Assembly (NCBI GenBank): GCA_035527455.1
Contig: DATLAN010000080.1
Span: forward strand, 1,425 to 65,424
Length of the DNA stretch: 64,000 bases
Direction: 5' to 3'
Source of the DNA: Thermoguttaceae bacterium
GTDB lineage: Bacteria > Planctomycetota > Planctomycetia > Pirellulales > Thermoguttaceae
Part shown: positions 11,146-60,842 of the stretch, piece after piece
Layout: each line of letters opens with the position of its first letter
Position numbering within the stretch: the first letter of the stretch is position 1
Translations under genes and position numbers: made by a program
The notes under the pieces: model-generated
The model's database searches: none
What the model was told of the DNA's origin: nothing
The model's input: only the letters and a program-made list of their open reading frames with translations

Positions 11146-11327
11146 GGCTGAAAACGCTCGCTCTCTGGCTATCTGGAGGCACTCCTCTCATGACTCCCAT
11201 CGGCTCGACACTGCGGGAATGATGAGATGCGGTTCTTCGAACTGCCGCCCAGGCGGTTCAACCCGGGCAAAACGAGATGGGTATAGCTATATAATGGGGA
11301 GAATATCCCCCTAGGGCACCTAAGGGG

Positions 11328-11395
11328 CCGCGCAGAAACAACTCGTTCAAGGGGGGCCACCCTTGCCAAAAAAGTGTACGAATCATTCTTGTGCA
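11328..11395. repeat. Partial copy of tail modules associated with family-A repeats
   Basis: CCGCGCAGAAACAACTCGTTCAA resembles the reverse complement of the tail at 19815..19839 and 48284..48308. CCACCCTTGCCAAAAAAGTGTACGAATCATTCTTGT matches 25593..25627. Confidence 0.45.
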
Positions 11396-11431
11396 AACAC
11401 TAATCGCCCCTTGGCCGGCAAGAAACGGGGG

Positions 11432-16602: not shown

Positions 16603-18462
16603 ATGAAGATCACTTGCCATTGTTCTTCGTGTGGGTTGGACTTCGAACTCGACCGGCGGTTCGCCGGCCGGAAGGCCCACTGTCCGATCTGTTCGGCCGC
16701 CGTGATGATCGCCCGTTCGGCCGATTCCAGGGAAGGGCCGGCGGAAAGCCAACCGGTGGCCCCGCCCCGACAGACTTCCGGCGGGGAGGAGGACGAGCCG
16801 ATCACCGGTTTCATTCGGCTCGAGCCGCTCGATTCGCAGTCGGAGGACGAGCCGGAGACGGATTCCGTGGAAATGGAGGCCCTGGCTCCGATCCTGGAGG
16901 ATGAGCCCGACGCGGATTCTCCGCAGGATGAAGCTTCCGCGGTGCTGCTGGAAGACGCGCCGGAGACGGGTTTTCCGCAACTCGGAACGGCCGGCCCGGC
17001 GTCGGACGACGTTCGCTTCCGCCGCACCCGTCCGGCGCCTGGAAAGAGCATCGAGCGGAAACAGGTCCTCCAGTTGGCCGCCATCATCTCGGCCTGCTTC
17101 CTGGCGGTCAGTCTCGTGGTGGCGCTGGTGGTCGTGTTGATTGTGCGGTCGGGAGATCCCAAGCAGCCGACGGCCGAGGATCAGAAACCCGCCAAGCCGA
17201 CGATGCTCGAGATCGCTTGGGACGAGAGCAGCCGCGACGGGGGAGTCGCGTACATCAACAACGAGAAGCACGAGCCGCCGCCGACCGGGCCGGTCCGGTT
17301 CCCCCTGCTCTCCGGAAAGAACCTCGTCCGGTTGCAGCGCCGCGGTTTCGAGATGATCGAGTTCACGCACGACTTCGTCCGGGGCGAAACCTACGTCTGC
17401 ACGCCCTCCTGGAAACGGATCACGCCGCCGACCGTCGCGCGGACAGACGATCCCTTCGAGCAATGGCGGCAGCGATTCGTGGCGGCGGAGGAGGATCTCA
17501 CGCGGGTTCCCTCCACGGTCGTGCAGTTCAACGAGTGGCTGAAGTCGAACTCGTTCGAATTGCCGGACCTTCGGCCCCGTCTGCAGTTGGAGGCCGCGCG
17601 CCTGCTGTTTCAGACCGGCCAACGCGACGCAGCCATGAAACAAATGGACGCTTTCGACGAGTGGATGAAATCGCACCAGTTCGGCGACATGGGGATCGCC
17701 GCCAGCCTGCACCTTGACGCGGTAAAACTGCTGTTCGCCGTCAGAGAACAGGAAGCGGCCAAGCAACAGTGCCGGCAAGGCCTCGCCGACGCCTCCGCAG
17801 ATCCCTTGACTCGCCAGGTGCTGACCGAAGGGCTTAGACTCATGGAACAGCACCCGGGAATCGTCAGCAGCGGAACGGGGTTCTTCGTTTTTCCCGGTGG
17901 GTATCTGCTGACGAATCATCACGTGATCGCAGACGCGAAGAAGGTGACGGTGACCCTCTACGAGCAGGAGGGCAACGTCCCCGCGGAGATCGTCGCCACG
18001 GACGCCGAAGCCGACATGGCCCTGCTGAAGATCGAGGTTCCCGAAGGAGTCAAGATCAAGCCGCTGAGACTTGCCAAGAGCGAAGTGCAGCGCCAGCAAG
18101 AGGTCTGCGTGTTGGGGTATCCGCACCTGAGCACCAGCGCCAACATGCTGGTGGCCACGAAAGGGATTGTCTCCGCAACGCAGAACGAGGAAGGCATGAT
18201 CACCACCGACGCCGCGGTCAACCCGGGCAACAGCGGCGGGCCGCTGTTCAACGTCTACGGGGCCGTGGTCGGCATGGTCACCCAGAAACACACCAGCTAC
18301 GGCCTGGCCATACCCGCCGACAAGCTGCAGACGTTCCTCGAGAAGCACATTCCCGAATTCGGCAACCAGCTCTACGAGGTCACCGCGGAGAGCGAACTGA
18401 AATGGGAGGAGTTGGACCGCCTCTTCGCACCCTCGGTGGTGATGATCCAGAACATCCAGTAG
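16603..18462 (+). CDS. Zinc-ribbon / acidic linker / TM / helical-repeat protein with C-terminal trypsin-like (S1C, HtrA-like) protease domain
   Basis: N-terminus has CHCSSCG..CPICS (4-Cys ribbon) and one TM segment (LAAIISACFLAVSLVVALVVVLIV). The C-terminal domain carries TNHHV (His), DMALLKI (Asp) and GNSGGP (Ser). Confidence 0.85.
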   Translation: MKITCHCSSCGLDFELDRRFAGRKAHCPICSAAVMIARSADSREGPAESQPVAPPRQTSGGEEDEPITGFIRLEPLDSQSEDEPETDSVEMEALAPILEDEPDADSPQDEASAVLLEDAPETGFPQLGTAGPASDDVRFRRTRPAPGKSIERKQVLQLAAIISACFLAVSLVVALVVVLIVRSGDPKQPTAEDQKPAKPTMLEIAWDESSRDGGVAYINNEKHEPPPTGPVRFPLLSGKNLVRLQRRGFEMIEFTHDFVRGETYVCTPSWKRITPPTVARTDDPFEQWRQRFVAAEEDLTRVPSTVVQFNEWLKSNSFELPDLRPRLQLEAARLLFQTGQRDAAMKQMDAFDEWMKSHQFGDMGIAASLHLDAVKLLFAVREQEAAKQQCRQGLADASADPLTRQVLTEGLRLMEQHPGIVSSGTGFFVFPGGYLLTNHHVIADAKKVTVTLYEQEGNVPAEIVATDAEADMALLKIEVPEGVKIKPLRLAKSEVQRQQEVCVLGYPHLSTSANMLVATKGIVSATQNEEGMITTDAAVNPGNSGGPLFNVYGAVVGMVTQKHTSYGLAIPADKLQTFLEKHIPEFGNQLYEVTAESELKWEELDRLFAPSVVMIQNIQ

Positions 18463-19579: not shown

Positions 19580-19786
19580 TCAATAGTCGGCCAGCGGTTC
19601 CGACAATCCTTCCTCGGCCATGGCTTGCTCGAACGCCGGATCCAGCTTCGAACACTCCTCGGCCAAGCGGTGTCGTTTCCGGTGGACAATCATTTCTCGC
19701 AGTGCGACTTGAACGGCCTGGCTTCGGCTGGCAAAGAGGGTGGCACGCCCCGAGGAACGAAGGGCGTGGAAAACCCGCCAAACCAC
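19580..19786 (-). pseudogene. Possible remnant of a ribbon-helix-helix (CopG/VapB-like) antitoxin, N-terminus replaced by a family-A repeat
   Basis: The C-terminal 45 aa (SRSQAVQVALREMIVHRKRHRLAEECSKLDPAFEQAMAEEGLSEPLADY) look like RHH helix 2 plus tail. The first ~17 codons are the translated repeat (VWRVFHALRSSGRATL). No beta-strand or helix 1 is present and there is no adjacent toxin. Confidence 0.3.
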
Positions 19787-19839
19787 GCCCTTCGTTCCTC
19801 AGGGCGTGCCACCCAATTGGGCAAGTCGTTTCTGCGCGG
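19738..19839. repeat. REPIN-like nested palindrome, family A, copy 1 (loop type 1, with AATTGG..TTTCTGCGCGG tail)
   Basis: GGGTGGCACGCCCcGAGGAACGAAGGGCGTGG-AAAACCCGCCAAA-CCACGCCCTTCGTTCCTCAGGGCGTGCCACCC. The stem is ~30 bp and each arm is self-complementary (CACGCCCT..AGGGCGTG). Confidence 0.9.
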
Positions 19840-19843
19840 GACT

Positions 19844-21811
19844 CTACTTCCTCTTCTTTGCCGTCTTTCGATGCGGCCGGTAGCCGGGGGCGGCTTTCTT
19901 GCCCTTGGATCTTTGCGCACATTGCCGCGAACGCTTGCTCTCGAAGACCCCGCTCCCCCGCCGGGCAGGGATGAGGCAATCCGGGCCCTCGCCGATCAGA
20001 TCCAGCCGGTTGGCCTGGGCCAACGCCCGGTGGACGTCGTCGTAGTTCTCCGGCTTCCAGTATTGCAGCAACGCCCGTTGCAGCCGCCGCTCCCGGGCAC
20101 CCTTGGGGACATGGACCGGCTCGCCGCTGATCGGGTCGATGCCCGTGTGGTACATACACGTGGCGACGTCCATCGGAGCGGGGATGAAGTCTTGGACCTT
20201 CTCGGGCCGGTAGCCGTGGCGCTTCAGGTACAACGCCAACGAGATCATCGCCGGCAGGTCGCAGCCCGGGTGGCCCGCCAGAAAATAGGGCACCAGGTAT
20301 TGCTCCTTGTCCGCCGACGCCGACTCGCGGCGGAACTTCTCGGCGAACTGCTCGAACTGCTCGATCGGCGGCTTTTTCATCCGCCGCAACACCTCCGCCT
20401 CGCAGTGCTCCGGGGCGACCTTCAGCAGCCCGCCGACGTGGTGCCGGGCGAGGTGGCTGATGTAGGCCGTGCTCCGGTTGGCCAGGTCCATGCGGACGCC
20501 CGAGGCCACCAGCACCCGCTTGACGCCCTTCTCACGCCGGGCGGCCTTCATCAGCTCGATCAGCGGGCCGTGGTCGGTTCGCAGCAGTTTGCAGATGCTC
20601 GGGTGGATGCAGCTCAGCCGCCGGCACTTCCGGCGGATTTCCGGCCGGCCGCAGTTCATCGCGTACATGTTGGCCGTCGGCCCGCCGACGTCGCTGATCG
20701 TGCCGGTGGAGTCCGCCGCTTCGACCACGCGGCGGATTTCGCCCAGGATCGACGCCTGGCTGCGGCTTTGGATGACGCGGCCCTGATGGAGCGTCAGCGA
20801 ACAGAACGTGCAGCCGCCGAAGCAGCCGCGCATGATCTGGATCGAATTCTTGACCACCTCGAAAGCCGGGATCCGCTGCTTGCCGTAACTGGGATGCGGC
20901 CGACGCGTCAACGGCAGCCCGTAGATCCGGTCCATCTCCGGCTGCGACAGCGGCCAGGCCGGCGGATTGACCACCACCGCCTCGCGATCGTGGAACTGGA
21001 CCAGCCGCCGGGCGTTGTCCGGGTTGGTTTCCCGGTGGATGATCCGCGTCATCTCGGCGAACGCCCGCTTGTCGGTCGAGACCTCTTCGTAGCTGGACAG
21101 CGTGATGGTCTCGACACGGTCGCCTTTGGAGACGCCTCCCACAGTTTGGTCGGGCAGGCTTTCGCTGGCTCCCAGGCGGTAGACCACGCCGCGGATATCG
21201 CGCAGGTCGGCGAGCGACGCGCCGCCGCGGAGCCGCCGGACGATCTCCAGCAGCGGTTGCTCGCCCATGCCGTAAACGACCAGATCGGCCTTGGCGTCGA
21301 GAATGATCGCCCGGCGGACCTTGTCGCTCCAATAGTCGTAATGGGCCAGCCGCCGCATGCTGGCCTCGACGCCGCCGGCCACGACGGGCACGTCGGCAAA
21401 GGCCTCGCGGGCCCTCTGGCAATAGGCCAACGTGGCCCGATCCGGCCGCCGCCCGATCCGTCCGCCCGGGCTGTAGGCGTCGTCGTTACGGACCTTCCGG
21501 TTGGCCGTGTAGTGGTTGATCATCGAGTCCATGTTTCCGGCACTAATGGCGAAGCACAGCCGCGGCCGGCCGAAGGTCCTCCAGGCATCGCAAGAACGCC
21601 AATCGGGCTGGCTGAGCACGGCGACCCGAAAACCCTCGGCCTCGAGCACCCGCCCCAACAACGCCATGGCGAAGCTGGGATGATCCACATAGGCGTCGCC
21701 GGTGACGAACACCACGTCCACAGCGTCCCAGCCCCGCGCCGCGACCTCCTCGGCGGTCATCGGCAGGGGGGGATCTGGGGGGGATTTCGAGTTTTCAGGA
21801 GAACTTGGCAT
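19844..21811 (-). CDS. ygiQ: YgiQ-family (UPF0313) radical SAM protein
   Basis: 655-aa ORF. N-terminal VDVVFVTGDAYVDHPSFAMALLGRVLEAEGFRV is typical of YgiQ. Radical-SAM cluster motif GCFGGCTFC (CX3CX2C). Confidence 0.92.
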   Translation of the reverse strand: MPSSPENSKSPPDPPLPMTAEEVAARGWDAVDVVFVTGDAYVDHPSFAMALLGRVLEAEGFRVAVLSQPDWRSCDAWRTFGRPRLCFAISAGNMDSMINHYTANRKVRNDDAYSPGGRIGRRPDRATLAYCQRAREAFADVPVVAGGVEASMRRLAHYDYWSDKVRRAIILDAKADLVVYGMGEQPLLEIVRRLRGGASLADLRDIRGVVYRLGASESLPDQTVGGVSKGDRVETITLSSYEEVSTDKRAFAEMTRIIHRETNPDNARRLVQFHDREAVVVNPPAWPLSQPEMDRIYGLPLTRRPHPSYGKQRIPAFEVVKNSIQIMRGCFGGCTFCSLTLHQGRVIQSRSQASILGEIRRVVEAADSTGTISDVGGPTANMYAMNCGRPEIRRKCRRLSCIHPSICKLLRTDHGPLIELMKAARREKGVKRVLVASGVRMDLANRSTAYISHLARHHVGGLLKVAPEHCEAEVLRRMKKPPIEQFEQFAEKFRRESASADKEQYLVPYFLAGHPGCDLPAMISLALYLKRHGYRPEKVQDFIPAPMDVATCMYHTGIDPISGEPVHVPKGARERRLQRALLQYWKPENYDDVHRALAQANRLDLIGEGPDCLIPARRGSGVFESKRSRQCAQRSKGKKAAPGYRPHRKTAKKRK

Positions 21812-25391: not shown

Positions 25392-25489
25392 CGAGATGCG
25401 GTGCTCAAGGAGAAATGGAAAAGCCGGGCGGGTGTCGCCCCGTTAGCCCTACTGCGGGGCACCAAGCCCCATCAACGGGGTGCAATGCG

Positions 25490-25596
25490 CTGGCAATGGG
25501 GTGGCACGCCCTGGCAATGGGGTGGCACGCCCTGAGGAACGAAGGGCGTGAAAAACCTGCCGAACCACGCCCTTCGTTCCTCAGGGCGTGCCACCC
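25490..25596. repeat. Family A repeat, copy 2 (loop type 1) with a 21-bp tandem duplication of its left end
   Basis: CTGGCAATGGGGTGGCACGCC occurs twice (25490..25510, 25511..25531). The full palindrome follows, with loop AAAAACCTGCCGAA. Confidence 0.9.
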
Positions 25597-25662
25597 TCGC
25601 CAAAAAAGTGTACAAGTCATTCTTGTTATTCTTGCGCGAACACCAGGCTTGCACTTGTAGCC

Positions 25663-38688: not shown

Positions 38689-38746
38689 GTGGGGCACGTT
38701 TTCAACGTGCCTTTTCGGTTATGGGCACGTTGAAAACGTGCCCCAC
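38689..38746. repeat. Nested palindrome, family E (single copy in window)
   Basis: GTGGGGCACGTTTTCAACGTGCC-ttttcggttatg-GGCACGTTGAAAACGTGCCCCAC is a perfect 23-bp inverted repeat. Each arm is self-complementary (GGCACGTT-TTC-AACGTGCC). Confidence 0.85.
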
Positions 38747-38851: not shown

Positions 38852-40243
38852 ATGGATCGTGCCAACAGACTGGGCGAAGGCAGCATCCCATCCCTCTTGC
38901 TGAAGTTCTCGGCTCCCGCCGTCGTCGGGATGATGGCCCAGGCCCTCTACAACGTCGTGGACCGGATCTTCGTAGGCCAGGGAGTGGGGCCCGAGGGGAT
39001 TGCGGGCACAACGGTCGCCTTCCCGTTCATGCTGGTCATGCTGGCCTTTGGCATGTTGATCGGATTCGGGGCGGCCGCCTTGGTGTCGATCCGGCTTGGC
39101 GAGCAGAAGAAAGAGCAGGCTGAACGGGTACTCGGCAATGCGACGGTGCTGTTGGTGGGCGCGTCGCTTCTGCTCACCGTCATGGGGACGGTGCTGCTCG
39201 ACCCTCTCTTGAGACTGTTCGGGGCGAGCGACCAGATCCTTCCTTACGCCCACGATTACTTGCAGATCATCGTCCTGGGCTCGGTCTTCCAAGCGGTCGG
39301 CTTCGGGCTCAATGCGATCATTCGCGGTGAAGGCAATCCCCGAATCGCCATGTTCACCATGCTGATCGGGGCCTTGCTGAATACCGTCCTGGACCCCATT
39401 TTTATCTTCGGGTTCGGTTGGGGAATGCGGGGTGCAGCCATCGCGACGGTCGTTTCCCAGGCAGTTTCTGCCCTCTGGGTGGTCAGCTACTTCCTTCGTG
39501 GCAAGAGCCTGCTGAAGCTCAGAAAGGCCAACCTGCATCTGCAATGGCCCACTTGCGCCTCCATCGTCGCCATCGGTTCTCCCCCATTTGCCATGCAGAT
39601 CGCCGCCGCCACGTTGAATGCCATCCTGAACCATCAGCTTCACCGGTACGGCGGCGATCTGGCGATTTCCGTGATGGGCGTCGTCTACGCCGTCATGCTC
39701 TTTATTGCCATGCCGATTTTCGGCATCAATCAGGGGGCGCAGCCCATTATCGGCTACAACTACGGAGCCGAAAACTTCGACCGGGTCAAGAAGACGCTCC
39801 AGACGGCGATCCTGGCCGCCACCACCATTACGACGGCAGGGTTCTTCGCTGCCATGATCTTTCCTTCGCAAGTGGTCTGGCTTTTCAACCGCGACGATCC
39901 GACCCTGATGCGTCTGGGAACTCACGCCCTTCGCACGTGCCTCATGATGCTCCCGATCGTCGGTTTTCAGATCGTCAGTGCCAGCTACTTCCAGGCGGTC
40001 GGCAAGCCGAAACACGCCCTGTTGCTGAGTCTTTCCAGACAGGTGCTCCTGCTGATTCCGGCAGTCTTCATACTACCCTGCTTCTTCGGCCTGGACGGTC
40101 TTTGGGCAGCCTTTCCGACCGCCGATCTGGGTTCTTCCATCTTGACCGGCACTTGGCTGCTCTGGGAGCTTCGCCACTTGCACAGACGCCACCTGGAGAC
40201 GGTGGACCATGACCGCGACGACGACGTGGGTGGCACGCCCTGA
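38852..40243 (+). CDS. MATE-family multidrug/toxin efflux transporter
   Basis: 463-aa ORF with 12 predicted hydrophobic segments. N-terminus LLLKFSAPAVVGMMAQALYNVVDRIFVG is typical of MATE. The last 5 codons and the stop lie in a family-A repeat. Confidence 0.9.
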   Translation: MDRANRLGEGSIPSLLLKFSAPAVVGMMAQALYNVVDRIFVGQGVGPEGIAGTTVAFPFMLVMLAFGMLIGFGAAALVSIRLGEQKKEQAERVLGNATVLLVGASLLLTVMGTVLLDPLLRLFGASDQILPYAHDYLQIIVLGSVFQAVGFGLNAIIRGEGNPRIAMFTMLIGALLNTVLDPIFIFGFGWGMRGAAIATVVSQAVSALWVVSYFLRGKSLLKLRKANLHLQWPTCASIVAIGSPPFAMQIAAATLNAILNHQLHRYGGDLAISVMGVVYAVMLFIAMPIFGINQGAQPIIGYNYGAENFDRVKKTLQTAILAATTITTAGFFAAMIFPSQVVWLFNRDDPTLMRLGTHALRTCLMMLPIVGFQIVSASYFQAVGKPKHALLLSLSRQVLLLIPAVFILPCFFGLDGLWAAFPTADLGSSILTGTWLLWELRHLHRRHLETVDHDRDDDVGGTP

Positions 40244-40342
40244 GGAACGAAGGGCGTGTATTCCCGACGTACCACGCCCTTCGTTCCTCAGGGCGTGCCA
40301 CCCCGGAGTTTACCGCAACCGTGTCAAAGACCGTTTGGTGCC
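40228..40342. repeat. Family A repeat, copy 3 (loop type 2, with GGAGTTTACCGCAAC..TTTGGTGCC tail)
   Basis: Same ~30-bp arms as the other copies. Loop is TATTCCCGACGTA. The tail is the reverse complement of the tails at 51760.. and 60728... Confidence 0.9.
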
Positions 40343-46873: not shown

Positions 46874-48193
46874 ATGGCTCGCCCCACGCCCCTTTGGCGA
46901 AATCCGAGACGTGCGAGACGCCGCCCGCGGGAGGGATCATCTTCGCTCGTCTTGGTGTTTGCGCTGGGGACGGTGTTCGCGTTGATCGCCTTGGCGTTGA
47001 ACTCCGCGTCGGTCTCCAACCACCGCGTTCAGTTGCAGGCCGCCTGTGAAGCCGCCGCACTGGCAGGTGCCGCCGAATTGATGGACCCCGGTCACCTCTA
47101 CATCGACCCCGGTCACCTCTACATCGACGTGGAACAACACGGCTCGACATCCGGTGATCCTGCTTCGGACCATCTGTCGGCCGCCCAACGCATCGCCGGC
47201 GCGCGACAACGGGCGATTCGCTTCGCCGCACACAACGGCGTGGCGGGCAAACCCCTTTTGCTGGCGGCCAACGAAACGAACGACGCTGGCGGGGATCTGG
47301 TGGTCGGCTGGGTTGAAGACCCCACGTCATTGGATAGTCAATGGGTACCCTGGACGGGCACGGGTCCGGTCAACTCGCTCCGCGTGCAAGCCGCCCGCAG
47401 CCACCTCCGCGGCAACCCCGTGACCTTGTGGTTCGGACGCATCCTGGGAGTTTCCGACACGGACGTCGTCTCCTCGGCCCGGGCGACCGTCGACCAGCGC
47501 GTCTACGGTTTTCGACCGATGGGCCACGTGAGGGTGCCCTTGGTGCCGATCGTGCTGCTCTCCCTCGACGGGGCGAGCGTGCAGACATCGCAGACTTCGG
47601 CACGAACGGCCCCGGGCAGGACGGATCGTTTCACGGTGGATCCACTCAGCGGCGACGTTCGCCAGGGCCAGGACGGAATCGGGGAAATCGAGTTGCGAGT
47701 CCGTCTCGTCGCGGAATCGTCGGCAGAGTCGGCAGCAGAGTCGGCCGCCCAAGCGGGAAACGCTTCCTTGTTGTCCTTCAACGGGCACGGCCCGGACTAC
47801 GCTCTGCTGCGAGAACAGATCGTGCAGGGGCTGACGGCCGAGGACCTGGAAACCCTCGGCGGCGAACTGGCCTTGGACCAAGACGGCCGCTTGCGGCTTT
47901 CGGGAATAGACCTTTCGAACACGGGGCAATTGAACAAACTGGGGCAGATGCTGCTTGACGTACGGGGACAGAAGCGGATCTGGCCGACGGGCAAGCGCGG
48001 TTCGGATTGGAGAAACAACGCCGTATGCGAGATAGAGGGTTTCATGGCCGGCAGCGTCGTCGACGGCTATTTGGAGACGGATGCGTGCTTGACGATCGTC
48101 GTGCAACCCTGCCTGTTGCAGACCTGCACGGCCCTGGTCGGCACGGGAAAGGATCGCAATCCCTGGATCGGCAAGCTCGTGCTGGACCGCTGA
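46874..48193 (+). CDS. tadG: TadG-like pilus assembly protein (Tad_N / TadE-G-like N-terminus)
   Basis: SSSLVLVFALGTVFALIALALNSASVSNHRVQLQAACEAAALAGAAEL matches the TadG N-terminal pattern. 439 aa. Confidence 0.78.
   Translation: MARPTPLWRNPRRARRRPREGSSSLVLVFALGTVFALIALALNSASVSNHRVQLQAACEAAALAGAAELMDPGHLYIDPGHLYIDVEQHGSTSGDPASDHLSAAQRIAGARQRAIRFAAHNGVAGKPLLLAANETNDAGGDLVVGWVEDPTSLDSQWVPWTGTGPVNSLRVQAARSHLRGNPVTLWFGRILGVSDTDVVSSARATVDQRVYGFRPMGHVRVPLVPIVLLSLDGASVQTSQTSARTAPGRTDRFTVDPLSGDVRQGQDGIGEIELRVRLVAESSAESAAESAAQAGNASLLSFNGHGPDYALLREQIVQGLTAEDLETLGGELALDQDGRLRLSGIDLSNTGQLNKLGQMLLDVRGQKRIWPTGKRGSDWRNNAVCEIEGFMAGSVVDGYLETDACLTIVVQPCLLQTCTALVGTGKDRNPWIGKLVLDR
47084..47125 (+). repeat. Perfect 21-bp in-frame tandem duplication (DPGHLYI DPGHLYI)
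   Basis: GACCCCGGTCACCTCTACATC occurs at 47084..47104 and 47105..47125. Confidence 0.97.
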
Positions 48194-48206
48194 GGTTTCT
48201 CAGCGA

Positions 48207-48308
48207 GGGTGGCACGCCCTGAGGAACGAAGGGCGTGGAAAACCTGCCAAACCACGCCCTTCGTTCCTCAGGGCGTGCCACCCAATTGGACAAGTTATTT
48301 CTGCGCGG
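48207..48308. repeat. Family A repeat, copy 4 (loop type 1, AATTGGACAAGT..TTTCTGCGCGG tail), between tadG and cpaF
   Basis: Near-identical to copy 1; starts 14 nt after the tadG stop. Confidence 0.92.
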
Positions 48309-48380
48309 AACCTAAGCGGACGGGCACGGCGGTCGCGACGCTCGGCCGATGAACTCAACCCATTTCGGTGAAGACCCATC

Positions 48381-50835: not shown

Positions 50836-51759
50836 ATGATTGAACTGGTGACACTGGTCGCTTTCGTGCTGGTCGTAGGCCTGGTTCTCTGGGTGGCCCA
50901 CGTCGCCCGGAAACTGCACCGCGATCCCATCCGCCAGGGGCTGGCGACCGCGGCCGGCATGGAAGCGCCACCGAACGATCGCGCGGCGACCAGGGGAACG
51001 CTGGTCCAGAGTTTCGCCTCGCAACTGCCCGAATTCACGGCCGGCAGCGACGAGTTGGACAAAGACCTTCGCCGGGCAGGCTACTACCGGCCGACGGCCC
51101 GGCAGGAATACCTGGCGATCCGCAACGCCTTGGTCATTCTGGTCGTGGTTCTCGTGGGCGCGCTGGCCGCCATCGTCGGGCCCCAGCGCGAAGCGACCGC
51201 GATCCGCGTGCTGGGTGTCGGTTTGCTGGTCGCCGCCGTCTTTTGGAGCATACCGCGGGTCTTGCTGGCGGTTCGCGCGAAGCGCCGAGTGGGGCGGGTT
51301 TGCCGCGCCCTGCCCGACGGATTGGACATGATCAGCATGTGCCTGACGGGCGGGGCGTCGCTGCAAGACGCGCTCAGCCACGTCGGCCCGCAACTCTTCG
51401 CGGCTCATTCCGACCTGGCAGTCGAGTTGATGATCGTCCGGCAACAGGCGGACATGTCGTCGCTGGAATTCGCCATCGAGAAGTTCGCCCAGCGCATCGA
51501 CGCCCCGGACACCGCCACCCTGGCCGCCCTGGTCACGCAGAACCAGCGCCTCGGCACCAGCGTCGTCGGCTCGGTGCGCGAGTACGCCGACAACATGCGG
51601 TCCACGCGCCGGCAGTTGGCCGATGAGAAGGCCGGCAAGGCCCAAGTGAAGCTGCTCTTCCCCGTGGTCTTCTGCTTTCTCCCGTCGCTGATCATTCTCC
51701 TGTGGGGATCGGCCATTCTGGAACTGTGGAGCTTCTTCCAGGAACTCGGCGGACCGTAG
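50836..51759 (+). CDS. tadC: Type II secretion F-family inner-membrane protein TadC
   Basis: 307 aa. LPDGLDMISMCLTGGASLQDAL (T2SSF motif) with N- and C-terminal TM segments. Confidence 0.87.
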   Translation: MIELVTLVAFVLVVGLVLWVAHVARKLHRDPIRQGLATAAGMEAPPNDRAATRGTLVQSFASQLPEFTAGSDELDKDLRRAGYYRPTARQEYLAIRNALVILVVVLVGALAAIVGPQREATAIRVLGVGLLVAAVFWSIPRVLLAVRAKRRVGRVCRALPDGLDMISMCLTGGASLQDALSHVGPQLFAAHSDLAVELMIVRQQADMSSLEFAIEKFAQRIDAPDTATLAALVTQNQRLGTSVVGSVREYADNMRSTRRQLADEKAGKAQVKLLFPVVFCFLPSLIILLWGSAILELWSFFQELGGP

Positions 51760-51872
51760 CACCAAACGGTTCTTGACATCGTTGTCGTAAACTTTGGGGT
51801 GGCACGCCCTGAGGAACGAAGGGCGTGTTTTCCCGACGTACCACGCCCTTCGTTCCTCAGGGCGTGCCACCC
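51760..51872. repeat. Family A repeat, copy 5 (loop type 2), starts at the tadC stop codon
   Basis: Left tail CACCAAACGGTTCTTGACATCGTTGTCGTAAACTTTGG followed by the palindrome with loop TTTTCCCGACGTA. Confidence 0.92.
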
Positions 51873-51935
51873 ACTGTAACATCCCAGCAACATATCGTGG
51901 GTGGTGCGGTGGTGCATTTCATGCACCCTATATGT

Positions 51936-60720: not shown

Positions 60721-60727
60721 ACCGGCT

Positions 60728-60842
60728 GGCACCAAACGGTTCTTGACATCGTTGCGGTAAACTCCGGGGTGGCACGCCCTGAGGAACGAAGGGCGTGGTA
60801 CGTCGGGAAAACACGCCCTTCGTTCCTCAGGGCGTGCCACCC
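60728..60842. repeat. Family A repeat, copy 6 (loop type 2 in flipped orientation)
   Basis: Left tail GGCACCAAACGGTTCTTGACATCGTTGCGGTAAACTCCGG as in copy 5, but the loop GTACGTCGGGAAAA is the reverse complement of the copy-5 loop. Confidence 0.92.

Follow-up and report, generated by a model that had tools for sequence, protein, structure and literature searches.

The window analysed here is a 64,000-nt stretch of contig C80 (GenBank DATLAN010000080.1) of a Thermoguttaceae bacterium. The source assembly is a 710-contig MAG of 7.56 Mb with 63% G+C, and its family-level relatives are Planctomycetaceae MAGs. The organism is an uncultured planctomycete. Six hairpin repeats lie in the window, all at the sites reported in a first-pass annotation, whose coordinates extend by one more G/C pair per side; the exact arm-to-arm spans are 19739-19813, 25521-25595, 40229-40302, 48208-48282, 51798-51871 and 60768-60841. 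The 30-nt arm, with the sequence GGTGGCACGCCCTGAGGAACGAAGGGCGTG and its complement, was matched 12 times in the window at no more than 1 mismatch, compared with 0 matches in 100 shuffles. The copies are surrounded by ordinary genes, coding for radical SAM proteins, methyltransferases, an M28 peptidase, a MatE efflux protein, a GFO/IDH oxidoreductase and TadG-like, CpaF and TadC-like proteins, and several of them lie inside the tad operon. We identified a seventh member beyond the six, a core-deleted composite at 11320-11405. The features are listed below, none of them assigned to a strand; A and B denote the loop classes, and A1, A1b, A2, B1 and B2 the tails that flank the arms.

11320-11405: seventh member, class A composite minus its core, with A2 tail, GGGGCCACC remnant and A1b tail, TAA on each side
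19739-19813: copy 1, REP doublet core with class A loop GAAAACCCGCCAAAC, left arm with 1 mismatch
19814-19846: copy 1, A2 tail, reverse complement; the radical-SAM gene 19844-21811 (minus strand) ends in the last triplet (19844-19846), a TAG stop
25473-25534: copy 2, stutter, a 21-bp duplication of tail end plus arm start, 3.0 copies
25521-25595: copy 2, REP doublet core with class A loop AAAAACCTGCCGAAC
25596-25643: copy 2, A1b-variant tail, reverse complement
40229-40302: copy 3, REP doublet core with class B loop
40303-40344: copy 3, complete B1 tail, reverse complement, ending in CCAG (decayed CTAG)
48191-48207: copy 4, shortened A1 tail; the TadG-like gene 46874-48193 (plus strand) ends in the first triplet (48191-48193), a TGA stop
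48208-48282: copy 4, REP doublet core with the class A master loop GAAAACCTGCCAAAC, between the tadG-like gene and cpaF
48283-48316: copy 4, complete A2 tail, reverse complement, ending in CCTAAG
51757-51797: copy 5, complete B1 tail; the TadC-like gene 50836-51759 (plus strand) ends in the first triplet (51757-51759), a TAG stop
51798-51871: copy 5, REP doublet core with class B loop, flipped relative to the B1 tail (compare copies 3 and 6)
51872-51894: copy 5, partial B2 tail, the inner 21 positions of the 54-nt B2 consensus over 23 nt
60726-60767: copy 6, complete B1 tail, starting with CTGG (decayed CTAG)
60768-60841: copy 6, REP doublet core with class B loop GTACGTCGGGAAAA

Two loop classes had been proposed for these copies and were found again: copies 1, 2 and 4 contain GAAAACCYGCCRAAC, while copies 3, 5 and 6 contain TWTTCCCGACGTAC or its complement. 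Opposite loop orientation, likewise noted before, is evident in copy 5, whose loop is flipped relative to the tail common to copies 3 and 6, and the 21-bp tandem duplication described for copy 2 was detected by TRF with period 21 and 3.0 copies. In most window copies only one tail is complete. The earlier statement that all copies are intergenic does not hold strictly. The first 15 nt of copy 3 (40229-40243) provide the end of the MatE efflux gene 38852-40243 (plus strand), namely its last codons (..V G G T P) and the TGA, and the tail triplets of copies 1, 4 and 5 are stop codons of the neighboring genes.

Each arm is itself a palindrome, CACGCCCT-GAGGAACGA-AGGGCGTG, and the REP unit consists of a GGTGG head, an 8-bp stem (CACGCCCT / AGGGCGTG) and a 9-nt loop. 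As ssDNA, a single arm folds with -9.2 kcal/mol and leaves the 5 head bases unpaired, and the whole element folds into one hairpin of 30-31 bp with -43 to -45 kcal/mol (z about -14). The six window elements are members of one REP family and are inverted doublets with REPIN architecture. A described structured RNA family had been named as the competing possibility; in Rfam, the window reaches threshold only for a tRNA, and the copies match only generic miRNA hairpin models, all of them below threshold. An intrinsic terminator was also rejected: a T-run follows the hairpin on neither strand, the flanking sequences being CAATTG.., CACCG.. and CTCGCTG.., and a terminator scan of copies 4 and 5 was empty. 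No promoter consensus was found at copies 4 and 5, and TTGACA..TAAACT in tail B1 was dismissed as a sigma-70 promoter because of its spacing of 9 nt.

The repeats are dispersed over the genome and not confined to the window. In total, 177 contigs of the 7.56-Mb genome carry 484 arms at no more than 4 mismatches, with 403 exact matches among them. The arms correspond to 222 inverted doublets, with spacers mostly of 14-15 nt, and 40 lone arms; the size of the family is given as about 240 copies. Among the 222 doublets, 114 carry a class A loop (15 nt), 82 a class B loop (14 nt) and 26 some other loop, and both classes are present in both orientations. Only crude, GC3-based gene calls with a coding fraction of only 67.5% were available, and these also underlie the stop-codon counts given below; by these calls, 15 of the 222 doublets fall within a gene. 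Regarding the orientation of the neighboring genes, 55% of the copies are located between tandem, 30% between convergent and 15% between divergent genes, against a background of 66/18.5/15, and the median distance from stop codon to arm is 50 nt. Thirteen or so lone arms of the MAG lie within 60 nt of contig ends. The Logan contigs L134 and L135, assembled independently from short reads of the same population, end inside the left arm of copy 5, at window position 51815-51816.

The first-pass annotation had found no RAYT gene in the window and had suggested looking for one flanked by the same arms. The window's contig indeed holds no Y1 transposase match. Pfam Y1_Tnp gave 17 matches in the genome, of which only an ORF on another contig, C346, is bracketed by the arms. 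This RAYT gene is a 196-aa ORF (C346:17477-18067) with doublets at 17334-17417 and 18121-18204, one 60 nt past its stop and the other 52 nt ahead of its start. Together with the dispersal over the genome, this gene bears out the earlier REPIN (REP doublet) reading. The protein scores 90.6 bits against NCBIfam NF047646 (REP_Tyr_transpos, cut-off 80) and 25.5 bits against PF01797 (cut-off 23), and its sole PDB match is E. coli TnpA-REP 4ER8, to which both its HUH motif (PEHVHLL; HVH) and its Tyr motif (EYIHANPV; EYIHANPVRRGLV) align. The doublets beside the gene have 24-nt loops of a third kind and lack tails.

A scan with one genome per species yielded 93 relatives of this RAYT, nearly all from Planctomycetota MAGs. 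The REPs that flank the 11 closest loci (58-67% identity, in other Planctomycetota MAGs) have their head and stem, GGTGGCACGCCCTGA...AGGGCGTGG (GGTGGCACGCCCTGA..AGGGCGTG), in common with the present family and differ in the small loop only. A homologue with 61% identity in the related genome G013 is REP-flanked likewise, and the arrangement is present in at least 12 other genomes. This is the defining arrangement of REP-RAYT systems, and it is conserved across genera; the REP arms are the putative recognition sites of the RAYT. The exact 30-nt arm also recurs in three genomes from other genera of the family, G005, G001 and G004, with 96, 12 and 11 copies, respectively (loci L107-L126); at E ≤ 1e-20, neither G005 nor G001 yielded a close RAYT. 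In the genomes that share the exact 30-mer, the CpaF orthologue is only about 50% identical. The partner arm in G005, G001 and G004 has another small loop (GCGCAGCGA and others), so that a long hairpin would carry an internal 9x9 loop, and in G005 and G001 class A-like tails flank doublets whose two REPs differ in their small loops.

The genome contains many further genes of this type with their own flanking repeats. Y1/RAYT-like genes of this kind are located at C244:1983-2600, C233:24859-25395, C35:152-586, C675:2374-2859, C599:10084-10647, C233:12036-12548 and C423:4849-5454, and five proteins of the genome pass the NF047646 cut-off. Other REP families are represented by GTAGGCCGGAACAAGCGCAGCGC (about 190 units), AAGCCGCGACCGGTGGTCGCGCC (about 118) and GTAGGACGGACCTCCGGTCCGTC (about 32); neither GTAGGCCGGAACAAGCGCAGCGC nor AAGCCGCGACCGGTGGTCGCGCC has a copy in the window. 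Another GTGG-tagged family of REP doublets, GTGGGGCACGTTTNCAACGTGCC, comprises 108 units and was found at 38689-38746 of the window (C80:40113) and in 57 other clusters of the genome; at C245:10836, C298:7171 and C508:6338 its members are preceded by a module resembling the outer class A tail, TWAGGATCSGCRCAGAAATAA.

Clustering of 439 flanks resulted in four tail modules, A1, A2, B1 and B2. That each loop class has its own tail module, as proposed before, applies genome-wide: A1 and A2 accompany class A, B1 and B2 accompany class B, and no mixing of A and B modules was seen in 75 full copies. By blastn, 203 of 226 tail matches in the genome adjoin an arm. By a sensitive score, a class A or B doublet is only exceptionally bare: two tails accompany 99 of them, a single tail 71 and no tail 20, and even these 20 still hold short remnants. 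Doublets that truly lack tails are scarce, and their loops are odd. The class A composite is about 150 bp long and reads TWA / GGTTCCGCGCAGAAAYAACYTGT.. tail - arm - loop - arm' - tail ..ACARGTTRTTTCTGCGCGGAACC / TWA, and that of class B, with about 165 bp, reads CTAG CACCAAACGGTT.. tail - arm - loop - arm' - tail ..AACCGTTTGGTG CTAG. An outer inverted repeat, TWAGGTTCCGCGCAGAAAYAACYTGT, is common to tails A1 and A2, and another, CTAGCACCAAACGGTT, to tails B1 and B2; the composite termini read GGTTCCGCGCAG.. or CACCAAACGG... The 75-bp palindrome is only a core and the copied unit is the whole composite, since tails are scarce without arms, the classes never mix and class A composites are enclosed in 3-bp direct repeats. 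Far from being loose flanking sequence, the tail modules form the arms of larger composites with inverted termini of their own.

The class A end triplets agree in their middle base in 14 of 14 TWA pairs (expected 54%, p = 1.8e-4), and odd triplets are duplicated as well (TAC/TAC, TTG/TTG, AAA/AAA). As these triplets are repeated directly and not inverted, they lie outside the palindrome. Class B composites have CTAG at both ends, and the informative pairs are split into 3 direct vs 3 inverted, a duplication and an inverted repeat being indistinguishable here because CTAG is palindromic. Elements of the IS5 family target TNA with a 3-bp duplication, or CTAG/YTAR with a 4-bp duplication. Tyrosine transposases of the IS200/IS605 type make no target duplications (Nunvar 2010, PMC2817692), and the class A composites do not conform to this. 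Inverted termini combined with target-site-like duplications, as seen in class A, are unexpected from a tyrosine (HUH) transposase, and the duplications suggest that the composite spread by a DDE-type (IS5-like) route. Ten PF01609 (DDE_Tnp_1) loci of the fragmented MAG were checked for a partner transposase, none of which has A/B-type termini or matching inverted repeats, and PF13359 (DDE_Tnp_4) had 0 matches in the genome; in a 710-contig MAG, where insertion sequences are poorly assembled, this is a weak negative. The A-type terminus is almost absent from G001 and G004.

Regarding the coding sequences next to the composites, the upstream gene uses the end triplet as its in-frame stop codon in 13 of 29 B1, 9 of 22 A2 and 6 of 21 B2 flanks with a gene end within 200 nt, as counted from the crude gene calls. 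The remaining B1 flanks of that set are mostly within about 12 nt of a stop codon. The 7.56-Mb genome contains 1,757 CTAG sites, at least 10% of which are at called stop codons (crude calls). CTAG is strongly depleted, with these 1,757 sites compared to about 25,000 expected, an estimate from base composition. If insertion takes place at CTWAG or CTAG, the outermost TAG or TAA would often become the stop codon of the upstream gene; such a preference, together with the loss of insertions within genes, explains the coincidence sufficiently and makes a link to translation unnecessary.

The inversion of the loop seen in copy 5 is recurrent in the genome. Among the 75 full copies, 26 have a loop that is flipped relative to the tails (10 of 40 in class A, 16 of 35 in class B). 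The flips do not cluster by tail similarity in class B (nearest-neighbor agreement 0.54 vs 0.49, p = 0.31) and cluster weakly in class A (0.78 vs 0.62, p = 0.024), which argues for repeated events, and as the loop class never changes, each inversion would take place within one element. The mean pairwise difference amounts to 0.6-1.9% in the arms and 10-17% in the loops and is much higher in the tails, where consensus agreement per column is typically 80-99%. Even nearest-neighbor copies differ by 9-13% in the loop, as opposed to 0.3-3% in the arms (average 0.9-1.7%), and by 9-29% (uncorrected) when loops and tails are considered. Because loops differ even between nearest neighbors and arms barely do, the copies are old and their arms have been kept uniform, which argues for a sequence-specific factor that reads the arms, most simply the RAYT. 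Arms that are better conserved than their surroundings have been reported for REPINs before (PMC3337134). The class A-like tails around REPs with different loops in G005 and G001, together with the exact 30-mer common to distant genomes, further suggest that the arms evolve in concert within each genome, independently of the tails.

Various states of decay were also observed. Stutter duplications of tail end plus arm start, as at copy 2, are present at 16 flanks genome-wide. Multi-copy stutter arrays built from the initial 14-17 nt of the arm, e.g. GGTGGCACGCCCTGGAG repeated, are found beside otherwise normal copies at C179:9103-9180, C705:2153-2230 and C374:23075-23252. Two doublets have collapsed to REP singlets (C544:40673 and C559:6366), and a search for flipping of the small loop within an arm gave only these two and overlaps with normal copies. 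Three core-less composites were convincing in a search that was noisy owing to its loose tail criteria; they keep GGTGCCACC, or GGGGCCACC in the case of the window member (11352-11360). Their sequence is consistent with a deletion bounded by GTG microhomologies at the base of the stem. In a check for presence or absence of individual copies, two near-identical assemblies (99.9%) carry copies 4 and 5 unchanged. The population is contained in the assemblies ERZ27256827 and ERZ27256834 and in the runs SRR8554643 and SRR8554512. No REP was found upstream of the cpaF homologues of four related genera, a comparison that says little because the proteins are only about 50% identical.

We consider it likely, with a probability of roughly 80%, that the repeats are a REP family with its cognate RAYT, that the composites spread by staggered-cut insertion, and that the arms are maintained while the loops flip. 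Composites would be spread by cut-and-paste and inserted with staggered cuts into CTWAG/CTAG sites, the target type of the IS5 family. After insertion, the arms would be held about 99% identical, either by selection or by a RAYT-linked homogenisation, and loops and tails would drift. Loops may flip when the two perfect 30-bp arms of an element recombine or when the template is switched from one to the other, and slippage at the base of the stem may give rise to the stutter duplications and the core-less relics. As to the transposase, it is quite conceivable, at somewhat less than even odds, that the REP doublets were amplified as cargo of DDE-type (IS5-like) miniature transposons, and that the roughly 200 class A/B copies were not spread by the RAYT. 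The pattern of conservation speaks against this, as the outer termini are expected to be the best-conserved part of a DDE-mobilised MITE, and here it is the inner REP arms.

That same pattern would be accounted for if the RAYT alone moved the whole composite as a long REPIN, by way of ssDNA in the manner of IS200/IS605 and with TWA/CTAG as cleavage or target motif. No other transposase of the genome is tied to these sequences, and REP doublet composites with class A-type tails also occur in other genera (G005 and G001), both of which favor such a route, yet we regard it as rather unlikely. TWA is located 30-40 nt away from the REP hairpin, whereas the guide and cleavage sites of IS608 are far closer, and the doublets that flank the RAYT gene itself are devoid of such tails. 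In addition, the two ends change together at the middle position of TWA in 14 of 14 pairs, and TAC/TAC and AAA/AAA are duplicated too, an outcome of staggered cuts that the known Y1 mechanism does not give (PMC2817692). The conserved arms can also be read in terms of the host, i.e. as hairpins selected locus by locus that act as stabilisers of mRNA 3' ends, terminators, translation-coupled regulators or protein-binding sites. The median stop-to-arm distance of 50 nt, the enrichment of convergent gene pairs (30% vs 18.5%), the position of several copies within the tad operon, and arms conserved to about 99% where nearest-neighbor loops and tails differ by 9-29% are in line with such roles. Direct repeats, stutters and relics are, however, marks of insertion and decay, about 15% of the copies are located between divergent genes, the hairpin has no T-run on either strand and no terminator is present at copies 4 and 5, and the cpaF upstream regions of four related genera lack the REP; we hold a host function as the origin of the family to be improbable. 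The hairpins may have a secondary function in the host, as is known for REPs of E. coli. Lastly, a bare 75-bp REPIN could be the mobile unit and land in the apex of pre-existing palindromic MITEs, the tails being its target. Core-less composites do exist, and the class A-type tail module TWAGGATCSGCRCAGAAATAA abuts another REP family (GTGGGGCACGATTCC..) at three loci. But mixing of loop and tail classes (0 of 75) is absent, arm-free tails are very rare, truly tail-less doublets are few and odd-looped, and all three core-less cases contain the same GGTGCCACC remnant, which, if left by a deletion at GTG microhomologies, makes these sites derived rather than empty. A mobile bare REPIN therefore seems very improbable to us.

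The family resembles the REPIN-RAYT systems (Bertels and Rainey 2011, PMC3116915, PMC3337134; Nunvar et al. 2010, PMC2817692) in its short palindrome with a 5' head of the GT(A/G)G type, in its hundreds of extragenic copies, in inverted doublets that form one long hairpin or two small ones (the 'clover' form), in REP arms far better conserved than the spacer, and in a single-copy RAYT gene flanked by the same REPs. It differs from them in that the host is a planctomycete and not a gammaproteobacterium, the arms are perfectly identical 30-mers, the doublets are part of longer modules with inverted termini and, in class A, 3-bp direct repeats, and only two spacer types dominate, each in both orientations. 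A super-family of GTAG-tagged REPs, with GTAG or a variant such as GTGG as a tag at one end, extends to the PVC superphylum, Planctomycetes among them (Di Nocera et al. 2013, PMC3733652), and the present family of stem-loop repeats with a GTGG-variant tag is of the same type; none of the planctomycete genus names that we looked for is mentioned in that study. The kind of element (REP/REPIN) is thus already known, and GTAG/GTGG-headed REPs have been noted in the PVC superphylum before (PMC3733652). Unusual are the nesting of the doublets in two MITE-like composites that bear repeats of target-site type at CTWAG/CTAG, the frequent loop inversion, and the contrast between frozen arms and drifting surroundings.

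The composites are also similar to the BIMEs (bacterial interspersed mosaic elements) of E. coli in being mosaics of REPs with class-specific linker and flank motifs. BIMEs, reportedly described by Gilson et al. in 1991, combine REPs in alternating orientation with conserved non-REP linker and flank motifs, each type with its own linker. We know of no report of terminal inverted repeats or target duplications in BIMEs, in contrast to the composites found here, which have terminal inverted repeats and, in class A, target-type duplications. MITEs derived from the IS5 family (ISfinder subgroups) are matched by the length of 150-165 bp, by imperfect terminal inverted repeats, by the direct TWA repeats of class A in a CTWAG context and by the CTAG ends of class B. 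Unlike in such MITEs, the most conserved part is the centre, a REP doublet tied to a tyrosine transposase, and an autonomous partner was not found (10 PF01609 loci in the fragmented MAG). The flipping of the loops is reminiscent of minute hairpin-loop inversions in chloroplast DNA, said to have been described by Kelchner and Wendel in 1996, where a loop between short inverted repeats is likewise found in both orientations as a result of recurrent, independent events; the present case concerns another kind of genome, and its stems measure 30 bp and belong to a mobile repeat family.

Regarding the organism itself, the repeat family supplies genes with stop codons and C-terminal residues and thereby affects their annotation. 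It also adds to the fragmentation of assemblies and accounts for contig breaks in those of the source organism. Regarding REP biology, REPIN-RAYT systems have to our knowledge been studied almost only in gammaproteobacteria, and we know of nobody who has shown the actual copying of REPINs. If the doublets are cargo of DDE-type miniature transposons, the RAYT would keep the arms uniform in place, or use them for something besides dispersal, and the question of what copies REPINs would be separated from that of what RAYTs do, an open question in the field. Should the duplications be borne out by empty sites, REPs would be dispersed by one process and maintained by another. The family, large, clean and from a distant phylum, unites a cross-genus RAYT-REP association, boundaries marked, in class A, by target-site-like duplications and near-identical arms in decaying copies.
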